Part shown: positions 223 through 57,181 of the stretch, piece after piece | How positions within the stretch are numbered: the first letter of the stretch is position 1 | How the letters are laid out: each line of letters starts with the position of its first letter | Assembly: GCA_001314655.1 (NCBI GenBank) | Contig: LJSF01000014.1 | Coordinates: forward strand, 1-64,000 | Origin: Rhodobacteraceae bacterium HLUCCA08 | GTDB taxonomy: Bacteria; Pseudomonadota; Alphaproteobacteria; Rhodobacterales; Rhodobacteraceae | DNA: 64,000 nucleotides | Direction: 5' to 3' | Program-made: the position numbers and the translations under genes | Notes under the pieces: generated by a model | Databases searched by the model: none | Seen by the model: only the letters and a program-made list of their open reading frames with translations | What the model was told of the DNA's origin: nothing

Positions 223-312
223 TGGCGGAGACGAAGGGATTCGAACCCTCGAGACGGTTTCCCGCCTACTCCCTTAGCAGGGGAGCGCCTTCGACCACTC
301 GGCCACGTCTCC
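223..312 (-). tRNA. tRNA-Ser (anticodon GCT)
   Basis: The reverse complement folds as a type-II tRNA. It has the acceptor GGAGACG/CGTCTCC, a D-arm, the anticodon loop CTGCTAA (GCT), a long variable arm, a GGTTCGAAT T-loop, and an encoded CCA. Confidence 0.85.
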
Positions 313-12656: not shown

Positions 12657-13172
12657 TCAATCGTCATCATCATCCTTGTCGTCCTCGTCATCATCCTCGT
12701 CGTCGGCGTCATCATCTTCGTCGTCTTCATCTTCATCGTCGTCGTCGTCGTCGTCATCGTCTTCATCGTCGTCGTCATCGTCGTCATCGTCTTCATCGTC
12801 GTCGTCATCGTCGTCTTCGTCGTCGTCTTCATCGTCGTCGTCGTCTTCATCGTCATCATCCGCACCCGCGTCATCCGCGTCCCCGGGGTCGACCAGGCGC
12901 GGGGTGGGCCTGTCATCGTCGTCGCGGCGATTGCCGCCGATCTCGGTCCAGTAATCGCGCAGGATCACGCCGGTTTCTGGCACCACGACGATCTCGCGAC
13001 GCAGTTCATCCGACCAGGCGACAAAACGGATCCGCCCCAGAAGCGTGCGGCTGACCTCGACGCGGGTGAACCCCTGGTCGTTCAATTGCCGAACGATCTG
13101 CTGCTCAAGGGTCTGGGCCGCGGCCGCCATCGGCGCGAACGCCAGGGACGCGGCCAGCAGAAGCGGTTTCAC
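12657..13172 (-). CDS. Secreted PepSY-like domain protein with a ~100-residue poly-Asp/Glu C-terminal tail (paralog 1)
   Basis: I take the start as GTG (13170-13172), giving (M)KPLLLAASLAFAPMAAAAQT, a signal peptide. The PepSY-like core is QGFTRVEVSRTLLGRIRFVAWSDELRREIVVVPETGVIL. The tail from about residue 125 to the C-terminus is almost exclusively D/E. The ATG at 13331 in the ORF track would overlap the upstream gene by 85 bp and lacks a signal peptide. The start is uncertain. Confidence 0.6.
   Translation of the reverse strand: MKPLLLAASLAFAPMAAAAQTLEQQIVRQLNDQGFTRVEVSRTLLGRIRFVAWSDELRREIVVVPETGVILRDYWTEIGGNRRDDDDRPTPRLVDPGDADDAGADDDDEDDDDDEDDDEDDDDDDDEDDDDDDDDDEDDDDDDDDDEDEDDEDDDADDEDDDEDDKDDDDD
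12660..12890. repeat. GTC/ATC/TTC trinucleotide microsatellite-like tract encoding the poly-D/E tail
   Basis: Long runs such as gtcgtcgtcatcgtcttcatcgtcgtcgtc, with internal 9-18 bp tandem duplications, are seen directly. Confidence 0.8.
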
Positions 13173-13246
13173 GATCGCGGGTTTCAAGCCTTGTCTCTTC
13201 CTTGTTCGGGCCGCGGGCGCGGGCCGCCGCGGCCCGCATTCCGGGT

Positions 13247-13873
13247 CTATTTGCGCGCCTTCGCCGGTTTGAAGGTCGCGTTGAAGGCGATCGAGACCCG
13301 TTCCTCCTCGGCCTCGTTGGGATAGACCCAATGCACCAGATAGGATGGGAACAGGATGAGGTCACCGGGCTGTGGACGCAACTTCTTCTTCATCCGGAAC
13401 GGCGGGGCCTTGAGGATGCGCCAGTTCGGCAGGTCGCTGCGCGGGTCGACGAATTCGATCATCCCCGAATTGCCCGGCGCGACCGCGGGCTGGGCGACGT
13501 AATAGACACCCGACCAATGCGCCCCGGGATGGGTATGGGGCGCGTTGAAGCCCCCCTTGGGGTTGGCGTTCATCCAGGCGAAAAGCTTGAGGTCCAGCGC
13601 CGCGCGCGGGGTGGTCGCGCCGATCCGGTCATTGGCCGCGAACACGGCCTCGGTCGCCAGGTCGCGCAGGCGGCGCAGGCAGGCGGGCTTGCCGTCGAAA
13701 AGGTTCCCCTCGGAATGCCAGCCGCCGCGGTTCGACTTGTGCGTGCCATCGGACAGGGCGCGCATCCGGGCGCCCTCCTCCAGAAGGGCGGCATTCAGCG
13801 CCGCATGATCCGGCGCCCGGAACCGCAGCACGGGGGTCGAGAACAGTTTTTCGTATCTGGTGGCTTCAAGCAT
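13247..13873 (-). CDS. Putative 2OG-Fe(II) oxygenase (TIGR02466-like family)
   Basis: About 208 aa. It has a HxD...H-type facial triad context (HTHPGAHWSGVYYV ... LFPSYLVHWVYPN) and an N-terminal ...LFSTPVL... The start is at ATG 13871-13873. Confidence 0.6.
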   Translation of the reverse strand: MLEATRYEKLFSTPVLRFRAPDHAALNAALLEEGARMRALSDGTHKSNRGGWHSEGNLFDGKPACLRRLRDLATEAVFAANDRIGATTPRAALDLKLFAWMNANPKGGFNAPHTHPGAHWSGVYYVAQPAVAPGNSGMIEFVDPRSDLPNWRILKAPPFRMKKKLRPQPGDLILFPSYLVHWVYPNEAEEERVSIAFNATFKPAKARK

Positions 13874-13989: not shown

Positions 13990-14511
13990 TCAGTCGTCGT
14001 CTTCCTCGTCATCATCTTCCTCGTCATCATCTTCCCCGTCATCATCTTCCTCGTCGTCGTCTTCGTCGTCGTCGTCTTCCTCGTCGTCTTCGTCGTCTTC
14101 GTCGTCTTCGTCGTCGTCGTCTTCCTCGTCATCGCGCGCGTCATCATCGCGCTCTTCGTCGTCTTCCTCGTCGTCTTCCTCGTCGTCTTCCTCGTCGTCG
14201 CTCTCGTCACCGTCGACAAAATCCTCGTCATCGGTATCGAATTCGACCCCGGGGCGGGTGTCGTCACCGGCGCGCACACGCTCGATTTCCTGGCTGAGGA
14301 TCGCGCCGGTGGCGGCATCGTAGATCACTTCGACCTTGGTATTGCCGCGGGTCGCCTCGACCTTGATCTGGGACGGGCCGGTATCGATCTCGACGCGGGT
14401 ATAGCCTTCGTCGAGATACCCCTGCGCGAGGCGTTCGGCCAGGCTCTGGGCCAGGGCCGGGCTGGCGCCGAGGGCGAGGATGGCGGTGGTGGTCATCAGG
14501 GTGTTGCGCAT
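13990..14511 (-). CDS. Secreted PepSY domain protein with a ~100-residue poly-Asp/Glu C-terminal tail (paralog 2)
   Basis: The start at ATG 14509-14511 has an AAAGGA RBS. It has the signal peptide MRNTLMTTTAILALGASPALAQS and the PepSY core EGYTRVEIDTGPSQIKVEATRGNTKVEVIYDAATGAILSQE. The tail is ~110 residues of D/E. Confidence 0.75.
   Translation of the reverse strand: MRNTLMTTTAILALGASPALAQSLAERLAQGYLDEGYTRVEIDTGPSQIKVEATRGNTKVEVIYDAATGAILSQEIERVRAGDDTRPGVEFDTDDEDFVDGDESDDEEDDEEDDEEDDEERDDDARDDEEDDDDEDDEDDEDDEEDDDDEDDDEEDDDGEDDDEEDDDEEDDD
13993..14250. repeat. Tandem 12- and 15-bp repeats (gtcatcatcttcctc x3; ctcgtcgtcttc x3) within a GTC/TTC-rich tract encoding the poly-D/E tail
   Basis: Direct tandem units are seen at 14020-14065 and about 14160-14200. 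Confidence 0.8.
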
Positions 14512-14732
14512 TGGGTCGTCCTTTCGGTCAGGAATGTCTCTTGTGTGAGCGTGGTCGAGGCAGCACCCCTCGGGTCCCTGCCTTGCCACCACCAGACCCG
14601 GTTCGACCTGCGCATCCCATTGACCCACGGGTAGAAACGGCGCGCCCTAAACCCCGCGACTAAGGCCATAAACTTCGGTTTAGGACCGATGCGGGGCTTT
14701 CGCGCCGATCGGTTTCGGCTCATGATCGGCCC

Positions 14733-15437: not shown

Positions 15438-18362
15438 ATGGCACTGATCCAAGGCGGCACCGGCAATGACAGCCTTGAAGGCACCAATGGCGCGGATCTC
15501 ATTTATGGTTATGGCGGCAATGACGACCTCTTTGGCAGCCCGGGCGGCGACCTCATGGATGGCGGCGCAGGCGATCTGGACACCGCCGACTATTCCGGCA
15601 GTCTGAACGGCGTCACCGTCAACCTCGACACCGGCGTGGGCGATGGCGGCCTGGCCACCGGGGACACGCTCGTGGGGATCGAGATCGTCATCGGCTCGGA
15701 TGCCGGCGACACCCTGATCGGCGACGACAAGGACAACAACCTGTGGGGTCGCGACGGCGACGACACGCTGATCGGCGGGCTCGGCGACGACAACCTGCAG
15801 GGCGAAGGCGGCTTCGACACCGTCGATTACTCCGACAGCGATGCCGCCGTCGAAATCTTCCATATCGACGCGGGCGGCGGCGGTCCCTCGGGCGGCCATG
15901 CCGAGGGCGATTTCCTCAAGGGCATCGAAAAGATCATCGGCTCCGATTTCGACGACACGATCTATGCGCCCTTCTCCGTCACCTGGTCCGAGGCCCATGG
16001 CGGCGATGGCAATGACGCCCTGCACGGGGTCACGCAGGATGTCTCGCTCTATGGCGGCAGCGGCGACGATTACCTGCGCGTCGCTTTCCCAGATGACAGC
16101 TATGTCTATGGCGGCCTCGACCGCGACGAAGTCGATTTCGACGGCGTCTTCGGCGTCACCGCCAATCTGGGCACCGGCATGGTCAACGGCAACGAGCGGC
16201 TGTTCCTGATCGAGGACGCGACCGGAACAGGCAGCACCGACATCCTGATCGGCACCAGCCTGGCCAATACGCTGGACGGCAGCGGCGGCGACGACACGCT
16301 CGAAGGGATGGGCGGCGCCGACCACCTGATCGGCGGCGCCGGTATCGACACCGCGCGCTATACCAGCTCGACCGGGGGCGTGATCGTCGACCTGGAGACC
16401 GGGACCGGCGACGATTTCCATGCCAACGGCGATATCCTGGAAGAGATCGAGAACATCCGCGGCTCCAACCATGGCGACACGCTTCTGGGCGACGCCAACG
16501 ACAACACCTTCTGGGGCCAGAACGGCGACGACACCTTTGACGGGCGCACCGGCGACGACACCTATTTCGGCGGCGCCGGCAACGACCTGGTCAGCTTCGC
16601 CAGCAGCGCCACGGGCCGCAGCGCGTCCCTGGCGACCGATACCGGCGGCACTTTCGACAGCATCGAATCCCTGCAGGGCTCGGACCGGAACGACACGCTG
16701 ACCGGCAATTCAATGGCCAACACGATCACCGGCGGCCTGGGCGACGACACGCTTGCCGGGCTGCAGGGCGCCGACCGGCTGGGCGGCGGCGGCGGCAGCG
16801 ACACCGCCGATTACCGCGCCTCGACCGCCAGCGTCAGCATCGACCTGGTGAACGGCACCGGCACCGGTGGCCATGCCGAAGGCGATGAGCTGCAAAGGAT
16901 CGAGAACGTCCAGGGCTCGGATTATTTCGACGTCCTGATCGGCGACGCCGAGGTCAACCGCCTCTACGGCAATGGCGACAACGACCTGCTGATCGGCGGC
17001 GCAGGGGCCGATTTCCTTTATGGCGGCGACGGGGACGACACGGCGATCTATACCGAGTCAGGTTCCGGCGTGACCGTCGACCTGCAGACCATCGGTGCCA
17101 ATCCCTATATCGGCGCCGGCACCGGCGGCGATGCCGAGGGCGACGTGCTGGACGGGATCGAGAATGTCGACGGCTCCAGGCACGACGATGTCCTGACCGG
17201 CTCCAACGCCGACAACACCCTGTTCGGCGACGATGGCGATGACACTTTCTTTGTCACCGGCGGCCAGGATGTGCTGGGCGGCGGCGACGGCGAGGATACG
17301 GTCGACTTCCAGGTTGCCCCGACCGCGGTCGGCACCACGGTCGATCTCGAGGTCGGCTATTACACGCTGGGGGCCATCGGCCCCAGCCTCGTGAACGATA
17401 TCGAAAACGTCGTCGGCACCGATCATGACGACACGCTCCTGGGCAACGCCTTCGACAACACGCTCGAAGGCGGCGCCGGGGATGACACGATCAGCGGCGG
17501 GCTGGGGCTTGATGTCGCCTCCTATGCCGGCGCCACGGGCGGCGTGTCGGTCTACCTGATGTGGACCGGGCTCGACGTGGGCGGCGGCGCGGGCATCGAC
17601 ACCCTGTCGGGGATCGAGAACCTTCTGGGTTCCGACCACGACGACCGCCTGGCCGGCGATACCGGCGACAACACCCTGCGCGGCCGCGACGGCGACGACA
17701 TCCTCAACGGCAAGGGTGGCAACGACGTGATCCGCGGCGGCGGCGGCCATGACAAGATCACCGCAGCCGACGGCAATGACAGCCTTTATGGCGGCACCGG
17801 CGACGACACGATCTTCGGCCTCGGCGGCGATGACCTGATCGACGGCGGCGCCGACAATGACTGGCTTTACGGCGGCCGTGACGCCGACCTGATCCTGGGC
17901 GGCGACGGCGATGACCAGATCCGCGGCAATATCGGCCATGACGACCTGCAGGGCGGCCTCGGCGACGACGATCTGCGCGGCGGCGCCGGCGACGATACGC
18001 TGTCGGGCGGCGCCGATGACGATTTCCTGGTCGGCGAGAACGGCGAGGACACGCTGGAAGGCGGCTCTGGCGACGACGTGATGATCGGCGGTTTCGATTC
18101 CGTGACCCCGGACGGGCTGCGCGACGTCTTCGTCTACAAGATGCACGGCGGCAACAGCGGCTATGACCGCATCCGCGGCTGGGAGGACGGCATCGACCAG
18201 ATCGACCTGACCGATTTCCAGTTCAATTCCTTCACCATCGACGTGTTCAACCGTGCAACCGACATCGCATCCGGTCTGCGGATCGATTTCGGGCTCGGCA
18301 ACGTGCTGCTGATCGAAGATTTCACCAAGGCCGATTTCGACGCGGGGGACGTGATGATCTGA
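15438..18362 (+). CDS. RTX-family calcium-binding repeat protein (hemolysin-type GGxGxDx[LI]x nonapeptide repeats) with a T1SS-type C-terminal domain
   Basis: 974 aa with dozens of GGxGxD repeats. The C-terminus (DVFVYKMHGGNSGYDRIRGWEDGIDQIDLTDF...LRIDFGLGNVLLIEDFTKADFDAGDVMI) matches the D.FvF...G.D.I.DF..G.D.IDL pattern of type I secretion C-terminal target domains. Confidence 0.85.
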   Translation: MALIQGGTGNDSLEGTNGADLIYGYGGNDDLFGSPGGDLMDGGAGDLDTADYSGSLNGVTVNLDTGVGDGGLATGDTLVGIEIVIGSDAGDTLIGDDKDNNLWGRDGDDTLIGGLGDDNLQGEGGFDTVDYSDSDAAVEIFHIDAGGGGPSGGHAEGDFLKGIEKIIGSDFDDTIYAPFSVTWSEAHGGDGNDALHGVTQDVSLYGGSGDDYLRVAFPDDSYVYGGLDRDEVDFDGVFGVTANLGTGMVNGNERLFLIEDATGTGSTDILIGTSLANTLDGSGGDDTLEGMGGADHLIGGAGIDTARYTSSTGGVIVDLETGTGDDFHANGDILEEIENIRGSNHGDTLLGDANDNTFWGQNGDDTFDGRTGDDTYFGGAGNDLVSFASSATGRSASLATDTGGTFDSIESLQGSDRNDTLTGNSMANTITGGLGDDTLAGLQGADRLGGGGGSDTADYRASTASVSIDLVNGTGTGGHAEGDELQRIENVQGSDYFDVLIGDAEVNRLYGNGDNDLLIGGAGADFLYGGDGDDTAIYTESGSGVTVDLQTIGANPYIGAGTGGDAEGDVLDGIENVDGSRHDDVLTGSNADNTLFGDDGDDTFFVTGGQDVLGGGDGEDTVDFQVAPTAVGTTVDLEVGYYTLGAIGPSLVNDIENVVGTDHDDTLLGNAFDNTLEGGAGDDTISGGLGLDVASYAGATGGVSVYLMWTGLDVGGGAGIDTLSGIENLLGSDHDDRLAGDTGDNTLRGRDGDDILNGKGGNDVIRGGGGHDKITAADGNDSLYGGTGDDTIFGLGGDDLIDGGADNDWLYGGRDADLILGGDGDDQIRGNIGHDDLQGGLGDDDLRGGAGDDTLSGGADDDFLVGENGEDTLEGGSGDDVMIGGFDSVTPDGLRDVFVYKMHGGNSGYDRIRGWEDGIDQIDLTDFQFNSFTIDVFNRATDIASGLRIDFGLGNVLLIEDFTKADFDAGDVMI

Positions 18363-18398
18363 CCCGCGACTCCACGCTCCTCACAACGGAGACTTTCA

Positions 18399-20024
18399 AT
18401 GACCACTTACATCTACAATGCCTTTGAAGCCCTCAAGCATCCGGTTCTGCAAGACACCTATACCCACATCCAGTACCGTGATTTCCAGATCGTCGCGCCC
18501 GAGGACGAAACCGGGTTCACCCTGCTGGACCCTTCGGGCGGCGCCCTGCCCGAGCCGCCCCTCGACGTCGATTCCGAGCTCTATGACCTGCGTTTCGGCG
18601 AGTCCGGGATCTTTGTCGATGTCGACCCGGACCAGGACCTGGTGCGCAGCGTCCGCCTGGACTGGACGCAAGGCGTGGCCGTGAACCAGACCGATCTGCT
18701 GATCTTCGAGGATGACCAGCGCCTGCTGGTGATCGAACTTGGCGGCGACCCCCTGCCCGCCTTCGCCAGCGGCGCCGAATTCACCGGTTTCGTCGGCGGC
18801 GTCATCAGCGCCGACGGCACCGCCGGCGCCCCCTTCGACCCGGGCAGCTTCATTCCCTTCACCTCGCTCACCTCCCTGTTATCCACGACCGAAAACGACG
18901 CCATCTTCGGCACCCCGGCCGGCGACACGTTCTTCGGCGGGCTGGGCAATGACACGATCACGGGCGAGACTGGCAACGATACCCTTTTCGGCGGCGACGG
19001 TGCGGATCGTATCCTCGGCGATGACGGCGACGACACGATCTATGGCGGCGAGGGCTACGATGTTCTCTACGGCGGCGCGGGCGACGATGTCTTCTTCGGC
19101 GGGACCGGCTACAACCAGATGTATGGCGGCGCCGGGAACGACACCTATTTCGGCGGCGATGTGACCGGCGACCAGGTGAGTTTCATCGAGGCCAGCTCCG
19201 GCATTTCGCTTTACCTTGAATTCCCGGATCTCGACCTGGGCGGCGGAATGGGGGTCGACACGTTCTTTTCCATCGACCGCTTTGTCGGCTCGCCCCACGA
19301 TGACCGCATGGTGGGCGATGACAGCTTCAATCGCCTGTTCGGCGGGTCCGGCAACGACATCATCCGGGCGAATGGCGGCACCGGCAATTTCCTCAACGGC
19401 GGCAGCGGTGACGACGATATCCGCGGCTCGGACGGCGACGATACGGTCTACGGCATGCAGGGCCAAGACATCATCGCGACGCTCGACGGCGCCGACGTGA
19501 TCTACGGCGGTGACGAAGCCGACTGGATCTCGTCCGGGCGCGGCAACGACATCGTCCATGGCGACGACGGCGACGACACGATCCGCACCAATCGCGGCAA
19601 CGACACTGCCTATGGCGGCAGCGGCGCCGACGATATCCGCGGCGGCGGCGGCAACGACCTGATCCTTGGCGGCGGCGACGACGATTACCTGGTCGGCGAA
19701 AACGGCGCCGACACGCTGGACGGCGGGGCCGGCGACGACGTGTTGATCGGGGGCTTCGATGCCACCACGCCCGACGGGCTGACCGATACCTTCGTCTACC
19801 GCACCGGCGCGGATGGCGGCGGCTATGACCGCATCCGCGGCTGGGAGGACGGCATCGACGTGATCGACCTGACGGCGTTCGGCTTCACCGATTTCGACAC
19901 CCAGGTCGATCCCCTCGCGACCGACGTCGCGGCGGGCCTCAGGATCGATTTCGGCGGCGGCGACGTGCTGCTGGTCGAGGATTTCACCAGGGCGGATTTC
20001 GACGCCGGCGACGTGCTGATCTGA
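18399..20024 (+). CDS. RTX-family calcium-binding repeat protein (paralog 2) with the same C-terminal domain
   Basis: 541 aa with GGxGxD repeats. The C-terminal ~90 aa align with those of paralogs 1 and 3 (DTFVYRTGADGGGYDRIRGWEDGIDVIDLTAF...GLRIDFGGGDVLLVEDFTRADFDAGDVLI). Confidence 0.85.
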   Translation: MTTYIYNAFEALKHPVLQDTYTHIQYRDFQIVAPEDETGFTLLDPSGGALPEPPLDVDSELYDLRFGESGIFVDVDPDQDLVRSVRLDWTQGVAVNQTDLLIFEDDQRLLVIELGGDPLPAFASGAEFTGFVGGVISADGTAGAPFDPGSFIPFTSLTSLLSTTENDAIFGTPAGDTFFGGLGNDTITGETGNDTLFGGDGADRILGDDGDDTIYGGEGYDVLYGGAGDDVFFGGTGYNQMYGGAGNDTYFGGDVTGDQVSFIEASSGISLYLEFPDLDLGGGMGVDTFFSIDRFVGSPHDDRMVGDDSFNRLFGGSGNDIIRANGGTGNFLNGGSGDDDIRGSDGDDTVYGMQGQDIIATLDGADVIYGGDEADWISSGRGNDIVHGDDGDDTIRTNRGNDTAYGGSGADDIRGGGGNDLILGGGDDDYLVGENGADTLDGGAGDDVLIGGFDATTPDGLTDTFVYRTGADGGGYDRIRGWEDGIDVIDLTAFGFTDFDTQVDPLATDVAAGLRIDFGGGDVLLVEDFTRADFDAGDVLI

Positions 20025-20262
20025 TCGCGCGCCGCGCCCGGCTGGGTTCGACCCGCCGTGGCTGTCGTCCTGTCGCGGCGGTCCTTTTCAAGATCCGCAG
20101 CGATCGGGGCAGCAGCAGCAAGGCGCTGCTGTTCCCCGACCGCGTGGCCAAGGCGCAACGTGACGCGACGCGACCCGATTTGTGGCGCCCGGGCGCACCG
20201 AAACGCCATAGAATCGCCGTTAACCATGATTAACACGCCGTTAACCAAGGAGGCGTGTTTCC

Positions 20263-21945
20263 GTGTTCACCTATCGTTTCGACGGCTATACTTGGGTCGG
20301 GTCGCTGGCCAGTTTCAATACCGTTCTGAACCGGGTCAATTACAGTTTCGACAGCGATGCTGTGACCTATGACCTGACCGATGCGGGCCAGGCGATCCAG
20401 GGCGAACAACTGGTCGATACCGACCTGCCGACGATCACCGCGGATGAGGTCGGGTCGGCCAACAGCTACACTGTCGACCTGGTCACCGCAGGAAACGTGG
20501 AGACCCAGATCCAGGAAGTCTCCTGGACCTATTTCGGCGAAAGCTACACGACCTGGATCCTGTTCAGCCAGGACATGGTGACCGGCCGCGCCTTCCTGAT
20601 GGAGATCGGCGGGGACGAATTCCCCACCTTCACCCAGCGCGCCGACCTGCAGAGCCTGTTCAACACCGCGACCTTCAGCGACCCCAGCCCCGGATCGGGG
20701 TTCGAGCCGGGCGATACCGTCCCGATCGCCGAGATCGCCGAGGTGACGGCCACCGATACCGACGGCAGCGTCACCGACACCCCCTGGGGCGACTGGATCT
20801 ATGCCAGCGACGGCGCCGACATGATCACCGCCGCCAGCGGGACCGAGGCGGATACGCTCCATGCGCTGGATGGCGATGACACGATCACCCTGGGCACGGC
20901 CGGCGGCCTGATCCATGCCGGCGCGGGCGACGACACCGCCACCACCGCCGCGCAATCGGCAATCACCTTCTACGGCGAGGACGGCACCGACCACCTGACC
21001 AGCACCGGCACCGGCCGGGTCTATTTCCTGGGCGGGGCGGGCGACGACACCTTCATCGGCAATGGCGCCGACGACTGGGTCAGTTTCGCCGACCCGAACA
21101 GCTACGGCATCACGCTCTATCTGAAATGGACCGGGATGTTCGACCTGGGCAGCGGCCAGGGCACCGATACCTATGTCGGGATCGAGGGTGTTCTGGGCTC
21201 GGATGGCGACGACCGGATCATCGCCGACAAGGACTCGACCATCGGCATCACCGTGCATACCGGCTTCGGGAATGATGTCGTGAAGGGCACCGAGGGCAAC
21301 GACGTGATCGATGGGCGCGACAGCGACAGCCTCGTGGCTCATGGACGCGGAGGCGATGACATCATCATCGGCAGCGATTTCGGAGATGACACGCTGTTCG
21401 GGTATCACGGCGACGATACGATCGACGGTCTGGATGGCTTCGACTACCTCTATGGCGGCGCCGGCAACGACCTGCTGCGCGGCGGCGAGGGCGACGACAA
21501 CCTGCGCGGCAATCGTGGCAACGACACGCTCTTCGGTGGCGCAGGCCGCGACGACCTGCGCGGCGGTGCCGGCGATGATCTGCTCGAAGGTGGCAGCGAC
21601 AACGATTACCTGTTCGGCGAAAACGGCGAAGACACCCTGCATGGCGGCACCGGCAACGACGTGATGACCGGCGGCTTCGGTGCCGGGGTGCTGGACGGGC
21701 GGACGGATGTCTTTGTCTTCGCCTCGGCCGCCCAGGGCAGCGGCGGTGCCGACCGGATCAAGGATTTCGAGGACGGGATCGACAGCCTGGATCTGACCGC
21801 CTTCGGCTTCGCCAGCTTCTCGCAGATCAGCGCCCTGGCCAGCGATACCGCCTCGGGCATGCGGATCGATTTCGGGGATGGCGACACGCTGCTGCTCGAA
21901 GGGTTCCTGAAGGCCGATTTCGATGCGACCGACGTGTCATTCTGA
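20263..21945 (+). CDS. RTX-family calcium-binding repeat protein (paralog 3); likely GTG start
   Basis: 560 aa. The N-terminal 170 aa are non-repeat, followed by GGxGxD repeats and the conserved C-terminal domain (DVFVFASAAQGSGGADRIKDFEDGIDSLDLTAF...GMRIDFGDGDTLLLEGFLKADFDATDVSF). AAGGAGG lies 10 nt upstream of GTG 20263. Confidence 0.8.
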   Translation: MFTYRFDGYTWVGSLASFNTVLNRVNYSFDSDAVTYDLTDAGQAIQGEQLVDTDLPTITADEVGSANSYTVDLVTAGNVETQIQEVSWTYFGESYTTWILFSQDMVTGRAFLMEIGGDEFPTFTQRADLQSLFNTATFSDPSPGSGFEPGDTVPIAEIAEVTATDTDGSVTDTPWGDWIYASDGADMITAASGTEADTLHALDGDDTITLGTAGGLIHAGAGDDTATTAAQSAITFYGEDGTDHLTSTGTGRVYFLGGAGDDTFIGNGADDWVSFADPNSYGITLYLKWTGMFDLGSGQGTDTYVGIEGVLGSDGDDRIIADKDSTIGITVHTGFGNDVVKGTEGNDVIDGRDSDSLVAHGRGGDDIIIGSDFGDDTLFGYHGDDTIDGLDGFDYLYGGAGNDLLRGGEGDDNLRGNRGNDTLFGGAGRDDLRGGAGDDLLEGGSDNDYLFGENGEDTLHGGTGNDVMTGGFGAGVLDGRTDVFVFASAAQGSGGADRIKDFEDGIDSLDLTAFGFASFSQISALASDTASGMRIDFGDGDTLLLEGFLKADFDATDVSF

Positions 21946-22025
21946 TTTTCACGCTTTGGGAAACGATGAAACCATGCTGGATTGACACGGATCGGGCCGC
22001 CCGGATCGCTCCGGACGGCCCCTTG

Positions 22026-23172
22026 TCAATCGCGCAGGCGCACGATGTCGCCCAGCAGCCCCTCGGTCCCGTTATGGACCGTCAGGCGTTCCACCTTCCC
22101 GGCGATGGTCTCCAGCGCCTCAAGTTCCTTGAGCCGCAACATCACCGGATTGTCCGCCATCACCTTGGCGGTGTTCAGAAGCGAACGGGTCGCGTTCGTT
22201 TCCTCGCGCCGGCGGATGACGTTGGCCTCGGCCTGTTTCTCGGCCGCGACCAACGCCGTCAGGATGTCGCGCATCTCGCCCGGCAGGATCACGTCCTTCA
22301 GGGCGATCTCGGCCAGCTCGATCCCGATCCGCGCCATCTCGGCCCGGAGGGTCTCGGCCACCTGCGCATCCACCGCGCCCTTTTCGGCCAGCAGGGCATC
22401 CAGGGTCAGCGCCCCCAGCGCCTTGCGATAGGCCAGGGCCACGGCCCGGTGCAGCGCTTCCTCGAAATCGCGCACCCGGGTGACGGCCGCCTCCGGATCG
22501 GTGACCCGGTAGATCGCGGTCAGGTTGACCCGGATGGTCACCCGGTCACGGGTCAGAACCTCGTGCCCGGTCACCTCATGCGCCCGAAGACGCAGGTCGA
22601 CCTGTTTGACCGCGACATGGCGCCCGACCTTCCAGAAGCCGTGGGTCCCCGGGGGCAATTGCCCCATCAGGACCCCGTCCACCGACAGCATCCCGACATG
22701 CCCCTCGGCCACTTCGGTGGCGTTGAAAGCCGTGGTCAGCCCCGCCCGCACCAGGCGCCGCAACAGCGGGGCCGGCACCTCCAGCCGGTCGGTCAGCGGC
22801 ACCCGCTCGACCTCCCAGGGGCCCGCATCTTTCCACCAGACCGCGCGCGCCTCGGGCAGGACGACCTCGTGCAGCCGCCCGTCGCGGGTGATCACCGCCA
22901 GCTCCGCCGGCCCGGTCCGGACCTCGGTCAGATGCGCCGCGGCCAGTTCGGGCCGGTCGCGCCACAGCGCCCCGTCATAGGGCGACACGAAGCGGAGAAT
23001 GTTCAGATCATGCACCTCGCGCAGCACGTCGCGTGCCGCGATCCGGTGCCGCCCGGGGCCCAGGATCGTTTCGATCCGCCCCTCGCGCAGCACCAGCATG
23101 CGCTCGGTTTCCATCAGGGTGACCCGGGTATGCCCGGTCAGCCGGTCCAGGATATGTTCGATCAGTCGCATC
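22026..23172 (-). CDS. SPFH/band-7 (stomatin/slipin-like) domain protein
   Basis: I take the start at MRLIEHIL (ATG 23170-23172), which has a GGAGA RBS. The SPFH core and a coiled-coil C-terminus (AEKQAEANVIRRREETNA...) are present. The ORF track's additional 148 N-terminal codons are low-complexity and probably not coding. Confidence 0.7.
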
Positions 23173-23583: not shown

Positions 23584-23658
23584 CGTTGTGATGGCTGGAG
23601 TCGAACCAGCTCCACCTCGATTAGACGTCGAGTGCTCTACCAGATGAGCTACATCCTT
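23584..23658 (-). tRNA. Degenerate tRNA-like sequence (pseudo-tRNA; TCT-like anticodon region)
   Basis: The reverse complement shows a good D-arm (GCTCATCTGGTAGAGC) and T-arm (GCTGG-TTCGACT-CCAGC). The anticodon loop is CGTCTAA with G in place of U33, and the acceptor stem closes with only 4 of 7 bp. It is either non-functional or non-canonical. Confidence 0.4.
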
Positions 23659-32361: not shown

Positions 32362-33528
32362 TCAGACCGCCTTTTTCAGCGCCTCGACCAGGTCGGTCCG
32401 TTCCCAGGAAAACCCGCCATCGGCCTCGGGCTCGCGGCCGAAATGGCCATAGGCGGCGGTGCGCTGGTAGATCGGGCGGTTCAGGCCCAGATGCTCGCGG
32501 ATGCCGCGCGGGGTCAGGTCCATCACCTGCGGGATCGCCGCCTCGATCGCGGCGGGCGCGACCTCGCCGGTGCCGTGGGTGTCGACATAGATCGACAGCG
32601 GCTTGGCCACGCCGATCGCATAGGACAGCTGCAAGGTGCAGCGCCGGGCCAGGCCCGCGGCGACCACGTTCTTGGCCAGGTAGCGCGCCGCATAGGCCGC
32701 CGAGCGGTCGACTTTGGTCGGATCCTTGCCGGAAAACGCGCCGCCGCCATGGGGCGCGGCACCGCCATAGGTGTCGACGATGATCTTGCGGCCCGTCAGG
32801 CCGGCATCGCCATCGGGGCCGCCGATCACGAAGGTGCCGGTCGGGTTGACCCACCATTCGGTCTTGTCGGTGATCCAGCCGCTGGGCAGGACCTCGCGGA
32901 TATGGGGTTCGACGATGGCGCGGATATCGTCGCTGGTCTGGTCCTCGCTTTCGTGCTGGGTCGACAGCACGATCGAGGTCACCTCGACCGGCTTGCCATC
33001 CTCGTAGCGCAGGCTGATCTGGCTTTTCGCATCCGGCTTCAACGTCGGTTCGGCGCCGGATTTGCGCAGCTCGGCCAGGCGGCGCAGGATCGCGTGGGAA
33101 TACTGGATCGGCGCCGGCATCAGCTCGGGCGTTTCATCGACCGCATAGCCGAACATGATCCCCTGGTCGCCGGCCCCGTCCCGGTCCACGCCCTGGGCGA
33201 TGTGGGCGGATTGCTCGTGCAGGAAGTTCAGCACATGGCAGGTGTTCCAGTGAAACTTTTCCTGTTCATAGCCGATGTCGCGGATGCAATCGCGGGCGAT
33301 ATTGCCGATATCGCCCATGAAGACCTTGAGCCGCTGCGGATCGGACAGACCGACCTCGCCGCCGATCACCACCATGCCCGAGGTCGCGAAGGTCTCGCAG
33401 GCCACCCGGGCATTCGGCTCTTCGGCCAGGAAGGCATCGAGGATCGCGTCCGAGATCCGGTCGCAAACCTTGTCCGGATGCCCCTCGGAAACGGATTCCG
33501 AGGTGAAGATGTAGTTGTTGCGGGCCAT
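32362..33528 (-). CDS. metK: S-adenosylmethionine synthase
   Basis: [27 protein letters not shown] is the canonical MetK N-terminus. Confidence 0.95.
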
Positions 33529-33606
33529 GGGGAGTGCTCCATTGGGGGTTTCCGCGCCTCGCCAGGAAGCCGTTGAGGCGGGTTGTTCCGGGTTCCGGCA
33601 TTTCGC

Positions 33607-35157
33607 CTATCCGGCGACCCCGGAAAGGTCAACGGCAAAGCGGCGGCGGGCCAATGCAAGGCCCAGCGTGCAGAGCGCGAGCAACAGCAGCAGCGGCCGA
33701 TCGCCGGTCCGGGCATATAGCGGCGGCGGCAGCACGCCGGGCAGGCGCGCGTCCAGATACCCCGCCTCGCCCAGCGGCAGCGATGCGACGATCCGCCCGC
33801 GCGCGTCGATCATCGCGGAAATGCCGGTATTGGCGGCGCGGATCATCGGCAGGCCCTGCTCGATCGCCCGGGCCTGCGATTGCACCAGGTGCTGGCGCGG
33901 GCCGGCATGATCGCCGAACCAGGCGTCATTGGTCAGCACCATCAGCAGGTCGGGGCGGCCCGACCCAAGGTCGATCTCTTCTGGAAAGATCCCCTCGTAG
34001 CAGATCAGCGCCCGGACCCGGCCCAGGGCCGCGACCTCGACCAGGTCCGGATCACCGCCCGGGGTAAAGCCGCGTGCCAGGTCCGCCACCCCGGTCAGGC
34101 CCAAGGGCTCCAGCACCCAGGACAGCGGCACGTATTCGCCGAACGGGACCAGGTGGGCCTTGTCGTAGGTCGCCGTCACCTCGGCCTCGGGTGAAATCAC
34201 CACCAGCGCATTGTGGAAGGCATCGCCCGCGCCCCGGCGCTGGATCCCGGCGACGATCTCGGCCCCGCGCCCGGCCCGGGCCATCTGGGCCAGCCAGGGC
34301 TCGGCGAAGTCCAGCAGAGCGGGGATCGAGGTTTCGGGCCAGACCACCACATCCGGCGGCACGCCCTGCGCCGTCAGCCCCACGGCCCGGTCGAAAAAGA
34401 CCGGCATCCAGGCCACGTCCCATTTCAGGTGCTGCGGCGCGTTGGGCTGCACGATCCGCACCATCGGCGCGTCGGCCACGGCGCCCGGCGCCTTCGGCGT
34501 GATCGCCGCCAGCCCGATCACCGCAACCAGCACCGCGACCAGCCCGGGCCAGATCAGCGTCCAGCCGCGGGCCAGCGACAGCGCAATCGCCCCGGCGACG
34601 GCCAGCAGCAGCAGCGACGTCCCATGCGGACCGATCCAGGCCAGCAGGTGATCGGCAGGCGTGCCGACGATGCTGTAGGACAACTGCGCCCAGGGAAAGC
34701 CCGACAGCACATGCGCCCGGGCCAGTTCCGCCCAGGCCAGCATCACCGGCAGGGCCAGCAAAAAAAGCGGCCCGCGCGGCACCAGCCTGCGCGCCGCCCA
34801 GAACGCGGCGCCCCAGAACAGCGCCAGCCCGCCGCACATGCCGATCACGGCAAAGGGGATCATCCAGCCGTGTTTCAGCGGATCGACAAGGAACGGCTCC
34901 ACGATCCAGCGCAGGGTGACGGCGAAATAGCCCGCGCCGAAGGCCCAGCCGACCCAGGCCGCCTGCTGCGCGGACAGGGCGACGCTTGCACGAAAGACGA
35001 CCGCCAGGCAGGTCAGCACCAGCACCCAGGGCACCGCGATCGGCTCGTGCGCGAGCGCCAGGACGGCACCGACCAGGAAGGCCGTGCCCAGCCGCTGCCA
35101 GCGCGTCCAGCCCAGCACCGACGCCCAGACCCGCGCGGCCCGGGCCGCTTCAGCCAC
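33607..35157 (-). CDS. lnt: Apolipoprotein N-acyltransferase
   Basis: It has an N-terminal polytopic membrane domain and a C-terminal CN-hydrolase domain, in 516 aa. Confidence 0.8.
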   Translation of the reverse strand: MAEAARAARVWASVLGWTRWQRLGTAFLVGAVLALAHEPIAVPWVLVLTCLAVVFRASVALSAQQAAWVGWAFGAGYFAVTLRWIVEPFLVDPLKHGWMIPFAVIGMCGGLALFWGAAFWAARRLVPRGPLFLLALPVMLAWAELARAHVLSGFPWAQLSYSIVGTPADHLLAWIGPHGTSLLLLAVAGAIALSLARGWTLIWPGLVAVLVAVIGLAAITPKAPGAVADAPMVRIVQPNAPQHLKWDVAWMPVFFDRAVGLTAQGVPPDVVVWPETSIPALLDFAEPWLAQMARAGRGAEIVAGIQRRGAGDAFHNALVVISPEAEVTATYDKAHLVPFGEYVPLSWVLEPLGLTGVADLARGFTPGGDPDLVEVAALGRVRALICYEGIFPEEIDLGSGRPDLLMVLTNDAWFGDHAGPRQHLVQSQARAIEQGLPMIRAANTGISAMIDARGRIVASLPLGEAGYLDARLPGVLPPPLYARTGDRPLLLLLALCTLGLALARRRFAVDLSGVAG

Positions 35158-36034
35158 CCGAACGGCCCTGCAGCCGCACGCGCAATCGCTTGATCCGGCG
35201 GGGGTCGGCCTCCACCACCTCGAATTCCGGGCCGTCTGGATGGGGGATCACCTCGCCGCGCGCCGGAACATGGCCGGCCAGCATGAAGACCAGCCCGCCC
35301 AGGGTGTCGATCTCTTCCTCGTCGATCTCGTCATGATGGGTCAGCGGCATGCCGATCTCGGCCTCGAACTCCTCCAGCGGCGCGCGGGCCTCGGCCATGT
35401 AGACGCCGGGCTTTTCCTGGTGCCAGGGGGTATCCTCGGCGGTGTCGTGTTCGTCCTCGATCTCGCCCACCACCTGTTCCAGCAGGTCCTCGATCGTGAC
35501 CAGCCCGTCGGTGCCGCCATATTCGTCGATCACCAGCGCCATGTGGATCCGCTCGGCCTGCATCTTTTGCAGGAGCACGCCCAGCGGCATCGACGGCGGC
35601 ACATAGATCAGCGGCCGGATCAGGGCGGACAGGTCGAACGCCGCCTCGTCGCCGTTGAAACCATGGATCAGGGCCACGTCCTTGAGGTTGACGAAGCCCA
35701 GCGGCGTATCCAGCGTGCCGTCGAAGACCGGCAACCGGGTGAACCCGCTGTCGCGGAACACCTGCACCAACGCCTCCTGGTCGATCCCGACCGGCACGGC
35801 GGAAATCTCGGCCGTGGGGATCATCACGTCTTCGACCCGCAGCCGGCGCAGGTTGACCATGCCGGGCATCGGCGCCTCCGCAGCGGGGGCCACTCCGTTC
35901 ACGGGATCAAGCGTATCCGAAGGAGACAGGGCATCGACGATACGGCTGAAAAAGCCGCGTTCACTGGCAGGTTGCTGAGGATCACCCGGCGCGCCACGCG
36001 CCGCGTTAGAAGACCCCTCGGGGGTATCGCCCAT
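35150..36034 (-). CDS. corC: CorC/HlyC-family transporter-associated protein (CBS pair plus CorC_HlyC domain)
   Basis: CBS domains and the C-terminal transporter-associated domain are present. The conserved ybeZ-ybeY-ybeX-lnt order supports the call. Confidence 0.8.
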
Positions 36035-36091
36035 CGTTTCTCTCTCACTGGCGGGCGCTGGATCGGGGCGGCCCGCGAAGGCCCCATGCGG

Positions 36092-57104: not shown

Positions 57105-57181
57105 TGGCGGCCCCTGAAGGATTCGAACCCTCGACCTGCCGATTAGAAGTCGGCTGCTCTATCCAGCTGAGCTAAGGGGCC
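57105..57181 (-). tRNA. tRNA-Arg (anticodon TCT)
   Basis: The reverse complement is GGCCCCTTAGCTCAGCTGGATAGAGCAGCCGACTTCTAATCGGCAGGTCGAGGGTTCGAATCCTTCAGGGGCCGCCA. This is a canonical cloverleaf with the loop CTTCTAA and an encoded CCA. Confidence 0.9.

Follow-up and report, generated by a model that had tools for sequence, protein, structure and literature searches.

The question addressed here is what three tandem genes of Rhodobacteraceae bacterium HLUCCA08 encode, and by what route their products would leave the cell when the surrounding DNA contains no recognisable export system. The genes lie in a stretch of 64,000 nucleotides (positions 1 to 64,000 of contig LJSF01000014.1), referred to below as the window. 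HLUCCA08, a salt-lake bacterium, is known as a genome reconstructed from Hot Lake unicyanobacterial consortia, with genes for bacteriochlorophyll a synthesis and a photosystem and for a proteorhodopsin-like protein (PMC5468372). All three genes are on the forward strand: P1 (15438-18362) encodes 974 amino acids (aa), P2 (18399-20024) 541 aa and P3 (20263-21945, with a GTG start) 560 aa. These coordinates and lengths, as set out in a preliminary description of the DNA, are reproduced exactly in the list of open reading frames (ORFs). The reading that we favour is that P1, P2 and P3 are tandem paralogous substrates of a type I secretion system (T1SS), of the serralysin/lipase/PrsD-substrate class, whose transporter is encoded elsewhere in the genome; we put its probability at approximately 0.8.

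P1-P3 are RTX beta-roll proteins. Hemolysin-type repeats had been recognised in all three in the preliminary description, and Pfam bears this out: PF00353 (HemolysinCabind) is the only family matched (E = 1e-72 for P1, 6e-54 for P2 and 1e-29 for P3), over 19, 11 and 5 stretches, respectively. Core nonapeptide motifs (GGxGxDxUx) number 34 in P1, 17 in P2 and 14 in P3, and the DNA of the trio has a 27-nucleotide (nt) periodicity, as expected from a nonapeptide repeat. The best database match for P3 is annotated 'putative Ca2+-binding protein'. P1 begins directly with RTX repeats and has neither an N-terminal module nor a signal peptide: approximately nine long-period units of 72-86 aa are followed by approximately 150 aa of uninterrupted nonapeptides and then by the C-terminal domain. 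Each long unit consists of a few nonapeptides and the pattern 'D.A.Y..S..GV.VDL..G.G.GG.A.GD.L..IEN..GS..DD.L.G'. One clear copy of this unit occurs in P2, at residue ~292, and a degenerate copy in P3. Both of these proteins are built of an N-terminal module of a family that we call 'MTTYT' (beginning MFTYRF in P3), an RTX beta-roll and a C-terminal domain.

A full-length AlphaFold (AF2) model of P2, made from 20 family sequences, has a predicted local distance difference test score (pLDDT) of 87.7 and a predicted template modelling score of 0.77. It comprises the N-terminal module, then an uninterrupted beta-roll whose strands recur at nine-residue intervals between residues 168 and 450, and lastly a compact cap at the C-terminus (pLDDT >90). 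When the model was compared with the PDB using Foldseek (E<=0.001), all 15 matches were RTX proteins exported by T1SSs (CyaA RTX blocks, MIS38 lipase and AprA/PrtC); matches just below this threshold were to serralysins, MpAFP and AlgE R-modules.

The proteins are also alike at their ends. An alignable domain closes each of them, as the preliminary description stated, and its non-repeat part of approximately 88 aa agrees with the ~90 aa given there. This part occupies aa 886-974 of P1 (18093-18359, ending ...DFDAGDVMI), where it holds the presumed uncleaved T1SS signal, aa 453-541 of P2 (19755-20021, ending ...DFDAGDVLI) and aa 472-560 of P3 (21676-21942, ending ...DFDATDVSF), all on the forward strand. 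Within the trio, pairwise identity comes to 58-61% when the last 200 aa are compared and to 58-70% for the last 110 aa. The DNA of P1 and P2 is 82-88% identical in two places, the final ~110 nt and the 'GYDRIRGWEDGID.IDLT' segment; because identity is high in both protein and DNA, the paralogy and the common C-terminal domain are real. The type I secretion character ascribed to the domain is likewise upheld, by homology to known T1SS substrates.

Sequence comparison assigns the C-terminal domain to the serralysin/lipase/SMc04171 type, placed after RTX repeats. In a phmmer search of PDB sequences, the end of P1 aligns to residues 310-405 of Erwinia PrtC (E = 3e-8) across 'RDTFVY...YDWIADFQKGIDKIDLSAF', the alignment running through the 'DTFVY...YDWIADFQKGIDKIDLS' segment, with further matches to Serratia serralysin, AprA and Pseudomonas MIS38 lipase. 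Among NCBIfam models, the C-terminal region aligns to serralysin-family proteases (profile positions ~320-403 of 462), to the polyurethane esterase PueAB (up to position 603 of 616), to ZapA, to the SMc04171 family up to its very end (positions 454-573 of 574; E = 3e-10 with the last 110 aa of P3) and to the glycanase EglC, where the aligned positions (105-206 of 459) are internal. The extreme C-termini (DVMI in P1, DVLI in P2 and DVSF in P3) combine an acidic residue with hydrophobic residues, an ending long known for protease- and lipase-type T1SS substrates. The preliminary description had placed the domain in a TIGR03661-type class, and this assignment does not hold: NCBIfam gave no TIGR03661 match for the full proteins (E<=0.01) or for the last 110 aa (E<=10), other TIGR models appearing in the output and the presence of TIGR03661 in the library being unconfirmed, and the matches obtained are instead to the C-termini of serralysin/PrtC, lipase, PueAB, EglC and SMc04171.

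The likeness to these known proteins is confined to part of their length. With serralysins (PrtC, AprA and serralysin) and family I.3 lipases, the trio shares the last beta-roll turns and the 'D.FVY....D.I.DF..G.D.IDLS' segment, which align, as well as Foldseek matches (1k7g, 3vi1 and 2z8x) and the same type of extreme C-terminus. Unlike these enzymes, the trio has no M10 catalytic or lipase domain, and PF08548 (Peptidase_M10_C) is not matched by the window proteins. An identity as serralysin (M10B) metalloproteases was ruled out: Peptidase_M10 is not matched in Pfam, and the NF035945 scores (59.1-210 bits) fall short of the cut-off of 500 and come from profile positions 319-403 only. The SMc04171 family of Sinorhizobium meliloti (NF046115) is, like the trio, alphaproteobacterial, and here too RTX repeats precede a C-terminal domain, for which the alignment extends to the final residue. 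The N-terminal part differs, however, P2 and P3 carrying the 'MTTYT' module, and at full length the trio reaches 103-147 bits where the equivalog cut-off is 625; since these scores are below the cut-off, P1-P3 are not SMc04171 orthologs.

P1-P3 have the properties of intact genes. Identical calls for all three were made by independent gene callers in six metagenome assemblies that carry an identical P2 protein, and the GC content at third codon positions (GC3) is 0.84-0.85, as in the real genes of the window (window GC 65-70%). A plausible ribosome-binding site precedes each gene: GGGGA for P1, GGAG 8 nt 5' of the ATG for P2, and AAGGAGG 9 nt 5' of the GTG for P3. The GTG start of P3 is credible because of this AAGGAGG and because residue 1 aligns with the N-terminus of the family. 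The P1 stop and the P2 start are separated by 36 nt, and P2 and P3 by 238 nt; given the 36-nt gap and the GGAG upstream of the P2 ATG, P1 and P2 are probably co-transcribed. Consensus scans for promoters and terminators performed no better than on shuffled sequence, and the same is true of a hairpin 3' of the P2 stop (z -0.38). A GC-rich, stable hairpin follows P3 directly (21982-22029, +) and extends as far as the 3' end of a convergent Band_7 gene. For the 88-nt stretch containing it (21943-22030), the folding energy is -32.7 kcal/mol, with z -2.4 relative to shuffled sequence; the hairpin is a candidate bidirectional terminator, though it has no T-run.

The N-terminal modules of P2 (aa 1-165; 18399-18893, +) and P3 (aa 1-170; 20263-20772, +) set these proteins apart from P1. 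A non-repeat module of 170 aa had been described as distinct to P3; it does exist, and it is not peculiar to that protein, as the P2 module is homologous to it (BLASTP pairwise E = 3e-8, 24% identity over ~170 aa, both starting M-x-T-Y). A fourth paralog at another HLUCCA08 locus, P0003 (516 aa), carries the same module and shares 44% identity with P3 along its entire length. Its locus (L009, 6098-11551) also encodes a 600-aa RTX protein and, in divergent orientation, a 547-aa protein that matches nothing in Pfam; mipZ/parA-like and histidine-kinase genes flank the locus.

A word-indexed homolog search with the two-sequence alignment of the modules returned nothing, not even the queries themselves, and an exhaustive HMMER search was used instead: a profile of the same two sequences, run against 1.84 billion representative proteins, found 44 clusters at E<=1e-3. 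In most of them the match begins with residue 1; the proteins begin 'MTTYT..G', their RTX repeats start at residue ~175-200, and most complete members end in tails of the D-F/V-x-F/I type. An alignment of 37 sequences contains conserved blocks (MTTY, 'VVPD...FSY', W, 'GGD.LP.F', 'G.GF.PG..I' and 'TE.D'). In Pfam, the members match nothing except at the start of the RTX repeats. The predicted fold is confident and beta-rich, with one helix in P2, and no solved structural relative is recognisable. Named members belong to the Rhodobacteraceae (HLUCCA08 and Aestuariivita), and most others come from metagenome or read-archive assemblies. The 'MTTYT' family is thus a genuine, rare, unannotated N-terminal domain that was previously undescribed, found at residue 1 of RTX proteins. 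The module is likely to be the functional (binding) part of P2 and P3.

Around the relatives in other organisms (L015, L016/L017 and L018), certain neighbours recur. Among them are genes for a glycosyltransferase, UDP-galactopyranose mutase, GDP-sugars and ABC-2 polysaccharide export, those for glycosyltransferase, GDP-sugars and ABC-2 export adjoining two relatives (L015 and L016/L017), and further RTX proteins, one of them 1198 aa long with an Integrin_beta/VWA match. One relative adjoins luxI/luxR quorum-sensing genes.

No N-terminal Sec or Tat signal was found in P1-P3, the first 40 residues having no hydrophobic run longer than 4 in a run-length check (not a dedicated predictor). Beyond this point we infer: that the proteins are secreted at all, that a distant transporter exists and which one it is, that Ca2+ drives their folding, and whatever they do outside the cell. 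The proteins would be synthesised without a Sec signal, and their uncleaved C-terminal region (~88 non-repeat residues with an acidic and hydrophobic end) would be recognised by a distant trio of ATP-binding cassette (ABC) transporter, membrane-fusion protein and TolC-like protein. They would be threaded out unfolded, C-terminus first. Outside the cell, Ca2+ would bind the GGxGxD nonapeptides, and the protein would fold into a parallel beta-roll capped by the C-terminal domain. P1 is in essence beta-roll throughout, with the long-period repeats, and P2, P3 and the fourth paralog add the N-terminal module of ~165 aa.

Where such a transporter might be encoded was addressed by translating every ORF of coding composition of at least 330 aa in the window and scanning it with Pfam. 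No T1SS gene, that is, none with ABC_membrane plus ABC_tran, HlyD or OEP domains, is present in the 64-kb window, and the gaps left uncovered hold small ORFs only. The content of the window is chromosomal housekeeping, including a CitMHS transporter, ychF, a flavin mononucleotide dehydrogenase, a major facilitator superfamily transporter, DUF2332, a beta-lactamase-fold protein, SPFH/Band_7, rpsA, aroA, metK, lnt, phoH, miaB, a fabF-like gene, uvrB, a methyl-accepting chemotaxis protein, and trpB, which was recognised from its translation and a PALP annotation. According to the preliminary description, the trio has no T1SS genes within 40 kb in either direction. Their absence from the window stands, as does the conclusion that any transporter must lie outside it; the reach claimed for the upstream side does not, as the window extends 15.4 kb upstream, with public assemblies stopping ~40 bp beyond its first position, and ~42 kb downstream. 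T1SS genes are also absent from the available sequence (<=10 kb on each side) around the fourth paralog and around four other loci encoding the N-terminal module (L014-L018).

Searches beyond these loci gave little further context. A word-indexed search with the alignment of the C-terminal 110 aa returned 26 proteins, all of <=190 aa and most from short contigs, and is therefore uninformative on whether HLUCCA08 has further paralogs beside a transporter. With P2 as query, a scan of genome contigs found only two RTX loci, both of them distant (one in Aquisalinus luteolus, the other in a metagenome-assembled genome of the Pseudomonadota), and no genome of a close relative.

The missing transporter was presented in the preliminary description as noteworthy. 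Published precedents and the five other loci without adjacent T1SS genes do not support this emphasis: substrates unlinked from their transporter are the documented norm in the Alphaproteobacteria, and absence in cis is ordinary. PrsDE of Rhizobium leguminosarum exports at least 12 proteins from dispersed chromosomal and plasmid loci, an arrangement that the authors contrast with the classical linked one (PMC2275737). This single transporter serves alphaproteobacterial T1SS substrates (NodO, PlyA/B and Rap) whose genes are scattered over many loci apart from its own (PMC2275737); unlike the trio, they have other passenger domains (glycanases, cadherin-like), and any homology would be limited to the RTX/C-terminal region. 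In Ruegeria pomeroyi, each of the three most abundant exoproteins is RTX-like, lacks a signal peptide and has a serralysin-like C-terminal domain; around the gene of the most abundant one, the neighbourhood examined, there is no RTX operon (PMC2953401). A Phaeobacter strain behaves similarly (PMC3933643), and secretion of SMc04171 in S. meliloti is TolC-dependent (PMC2912261). These Roseobacter-group exoproteins (R. pomeroyi YP_165496, YP_165625 and YP_168868; Phaeobacter ZP_02147451) are from the same family, Rhodobacteraceae, and are likened to the trio by published description rather than by sequence alignment. The two sets have RTX repeats, a serralysin-like C-terminal domain and the absence of a signal peptide in common, and the Roseobacter-group proteins are highly abundant in exoproteomes (PMC2953401, PMC3933643); their N-terminal parts are described differently (e.g. 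PEPEPK repeats), and export of the trio is predicted.

Several points weigh against export of P1-P3 by a distant T1SS. No transporter is seen in the 64-kb window. The segment homologous to the C-terminal domain is internal in EglC, so the conserved ~90-100 aa may be chiefly a cap or folding nucleus for the beta-roll, with the secretion signal proper only in the last few dozen residues. The paper that names HLUCCA08 and its supplements say nothing on RTX proteins or T1SSs (PMC5468372), and no proteomic or expression evidence was found.

An alternative that shares the export step, and that survives better than the others, is that the proteins are retained on the cell as a surface coat or adhesin, with the 'MTTYT' module as the anchor and P1 as a structural beta-roll partner; we consider this unlikely. 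The N-terminal domain of the S-layer protein RsaA binds O-antigen, and the retention module of LapA/MpIBP plugs the outer-membrane channel. Anchoring of the trio would follow one of these routes, by binding of surface polysaccharide (RsaA-like) or by plugging of an outer-membrane channel (LapA/MpIBP-like). The module is always at residue 1, with first residues that are nearly invariant, and would be the last part to emerge in C-terminus-first export; in addition, the polysaccharide genes and the further RTX proteins beside its relatives would fit this reading. The trio itself has no polysaccharide cluster beside it in the window, and no LapD/LapG-like genes occur there. A LapG-type (T/A/P)-A-A-(G/V) motif is absent from residues 1-220 of P2, P3 and P0003; among the 37 family members checked, only P0132, P0135 and P0147 have it. 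A LapA-type, BTLCP-linked adhesin or retention module was ruled out, as P2, P3 and P0003 have no LapG di-alanine site and the window has neither lapD nor lapG. The fixed N-terminal position and the polysaccharide-gene neighbours of two relatives, and nothing else, suggest that the module anchors the protein to the surface or binds a ligand, which is a minority hypothesis. A broader version, in which the module would be a new fold serving as a surface anchor or a polysaccharide-binding head, and a small set of Rhodobacteraceae RTX proteins would be a T1SS-exported, Ca2+-dependent surface coat or matrix lectin with P1-P3 co-assembling, is a long shot.

That the trio encodes RTX toxins or bacteriocins, either a pore-forming cytolysin or a rhizobiocin-like factor directed against consortium neighbours, is very improbable. 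RTX repeats with T1SS-type ends are common to cytolysins and rhizobial RTX bacteriocins, there are partial NCBIfam matches to RTX_toxin and EhxA, and the relative that adjoins luxI/luxR would suit such a role. The RTX_toxin scores, however, are 205, 113 and 97.8 bits for P1, P2 and P3 against a cut-off of 1000 (NF033943), and cover the repeat region only; the proteins have no hydrophobic pore-forming domain, the window has no HlyC/CyaC-type acyltransferase gene, and no immunity-like gene is evident. With NF033943 far below its cut-off and no acyltransferase among the window genes, a pore-forming RTX cytolysin of the HlyA/CyaA/LtxA type was ruled out. A window gene at 35153-36091 (-) encodes CBS and CorC_HlyC domains; the latter is a CorC-type transporter-associated domain and not the RTX-activating HlyC acyltransferase.

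Scarcely credible, finally, is the idea that P1-P3 are not exported or take another route, as cytoplasmic or periplasmic Ca2+-binding proteins or decaying paralogs: the lack of a transporter in the window and of expression evidence would fit it, but at least six independent assemblies contain the same intact ORFs without differences, their GC3 is typical of real genes in the window, their ribosome-binding sites are good, they have neither a Sec nor a Tat signal, and RTX beta-rolls need millimolar Ca2+, which the cytoplasm does not offer.

Upstream of the trio, on the opposite strand, are two poly-acidic ORFs (12657-13331 and 13990-14628, -), each encoding a signal peptide, a domain of ~70 aa and a long D/E tail. 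The ~70-aa domain has sub-threshold similarity to PepSY_2 (E = 0.004 and 0.2). Across assemblies of the same organism, the called lengths of the pair are 171/176/166 aa and 173/173/154 aa; from these lengths we suspect that the acidic tract expands and contracts. The preliminary description regarded the proximity of these proteins to the trio as consistent with a common calcium-dependent extracellular function. A functional link finds no support: the poly-acidic proteins use a different export route (Sec), since they have signal peptides, they are encoded on the other strand, and two unrelated genes, for a 2-oxoglutarate-Fe(II) oxygenase and a DUF4893 protein, lie between. A calcium-related role common to both sets is possible, adjacency being its sole basis.

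A tRNA-like element at 23590-23655 (-) sits right beside the trio, within the 778 bp that separate trpB from the Band_7 gene. It matches the Rfam tRNA model with 42.8 bits (model positions 4-67) and is not called by ARAGORN. Its anticodon loop, CGUCUAA, has a G replacing the universal U33, with the anticodon UCU like the genuine tRNA-Arg at 57105-57181; on reading of the sequence, approximately 4 acceptor base pairs are possible and there is no CCA. The element may represent a pseudo-tRNA or the scar of an old integration. Further along, a SAM/SAH (S-adenosylmethionine/S-adenosylhomocysteine) riboswitch aptamer (RF01727, 52.4 bits) lies at 33535-33584 (-), where the metK region (stop-to-stop frame 32362-33606) has its 5' end. 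At the other end, two assemblies that carry the first gene of the window start near its position 1: L012 ~40 bp before and L013 ~260 bp after it, their contigs beginning ~450 bp and ~150 bp upstream of that gene, respectively. A tRNA-Ser (GCT) gene is present at 223-312 (-). The window start seems to be a recurrent assembly break, possibly at a repeat or island boundary next to a tRNA.

For secretion biology, the locus is of little consequence, adding one more alphaproteobacterial case of T1SS substrates encoded away from their transporter, and the correction of class, by which the C-terminal domain belongs with the serralysin/SMc04171 type and not with TIGR03661, is of modest value. The N-terminal module is a new small domain family on RTX proteins that comes with an alignment and a confident model, and is a candidate for a domain-of-unknown-function entry. 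It is relevant to the Rhodobacteraceae of phototrophic consortia, in which RTX proteins often dominate the exoproteome.

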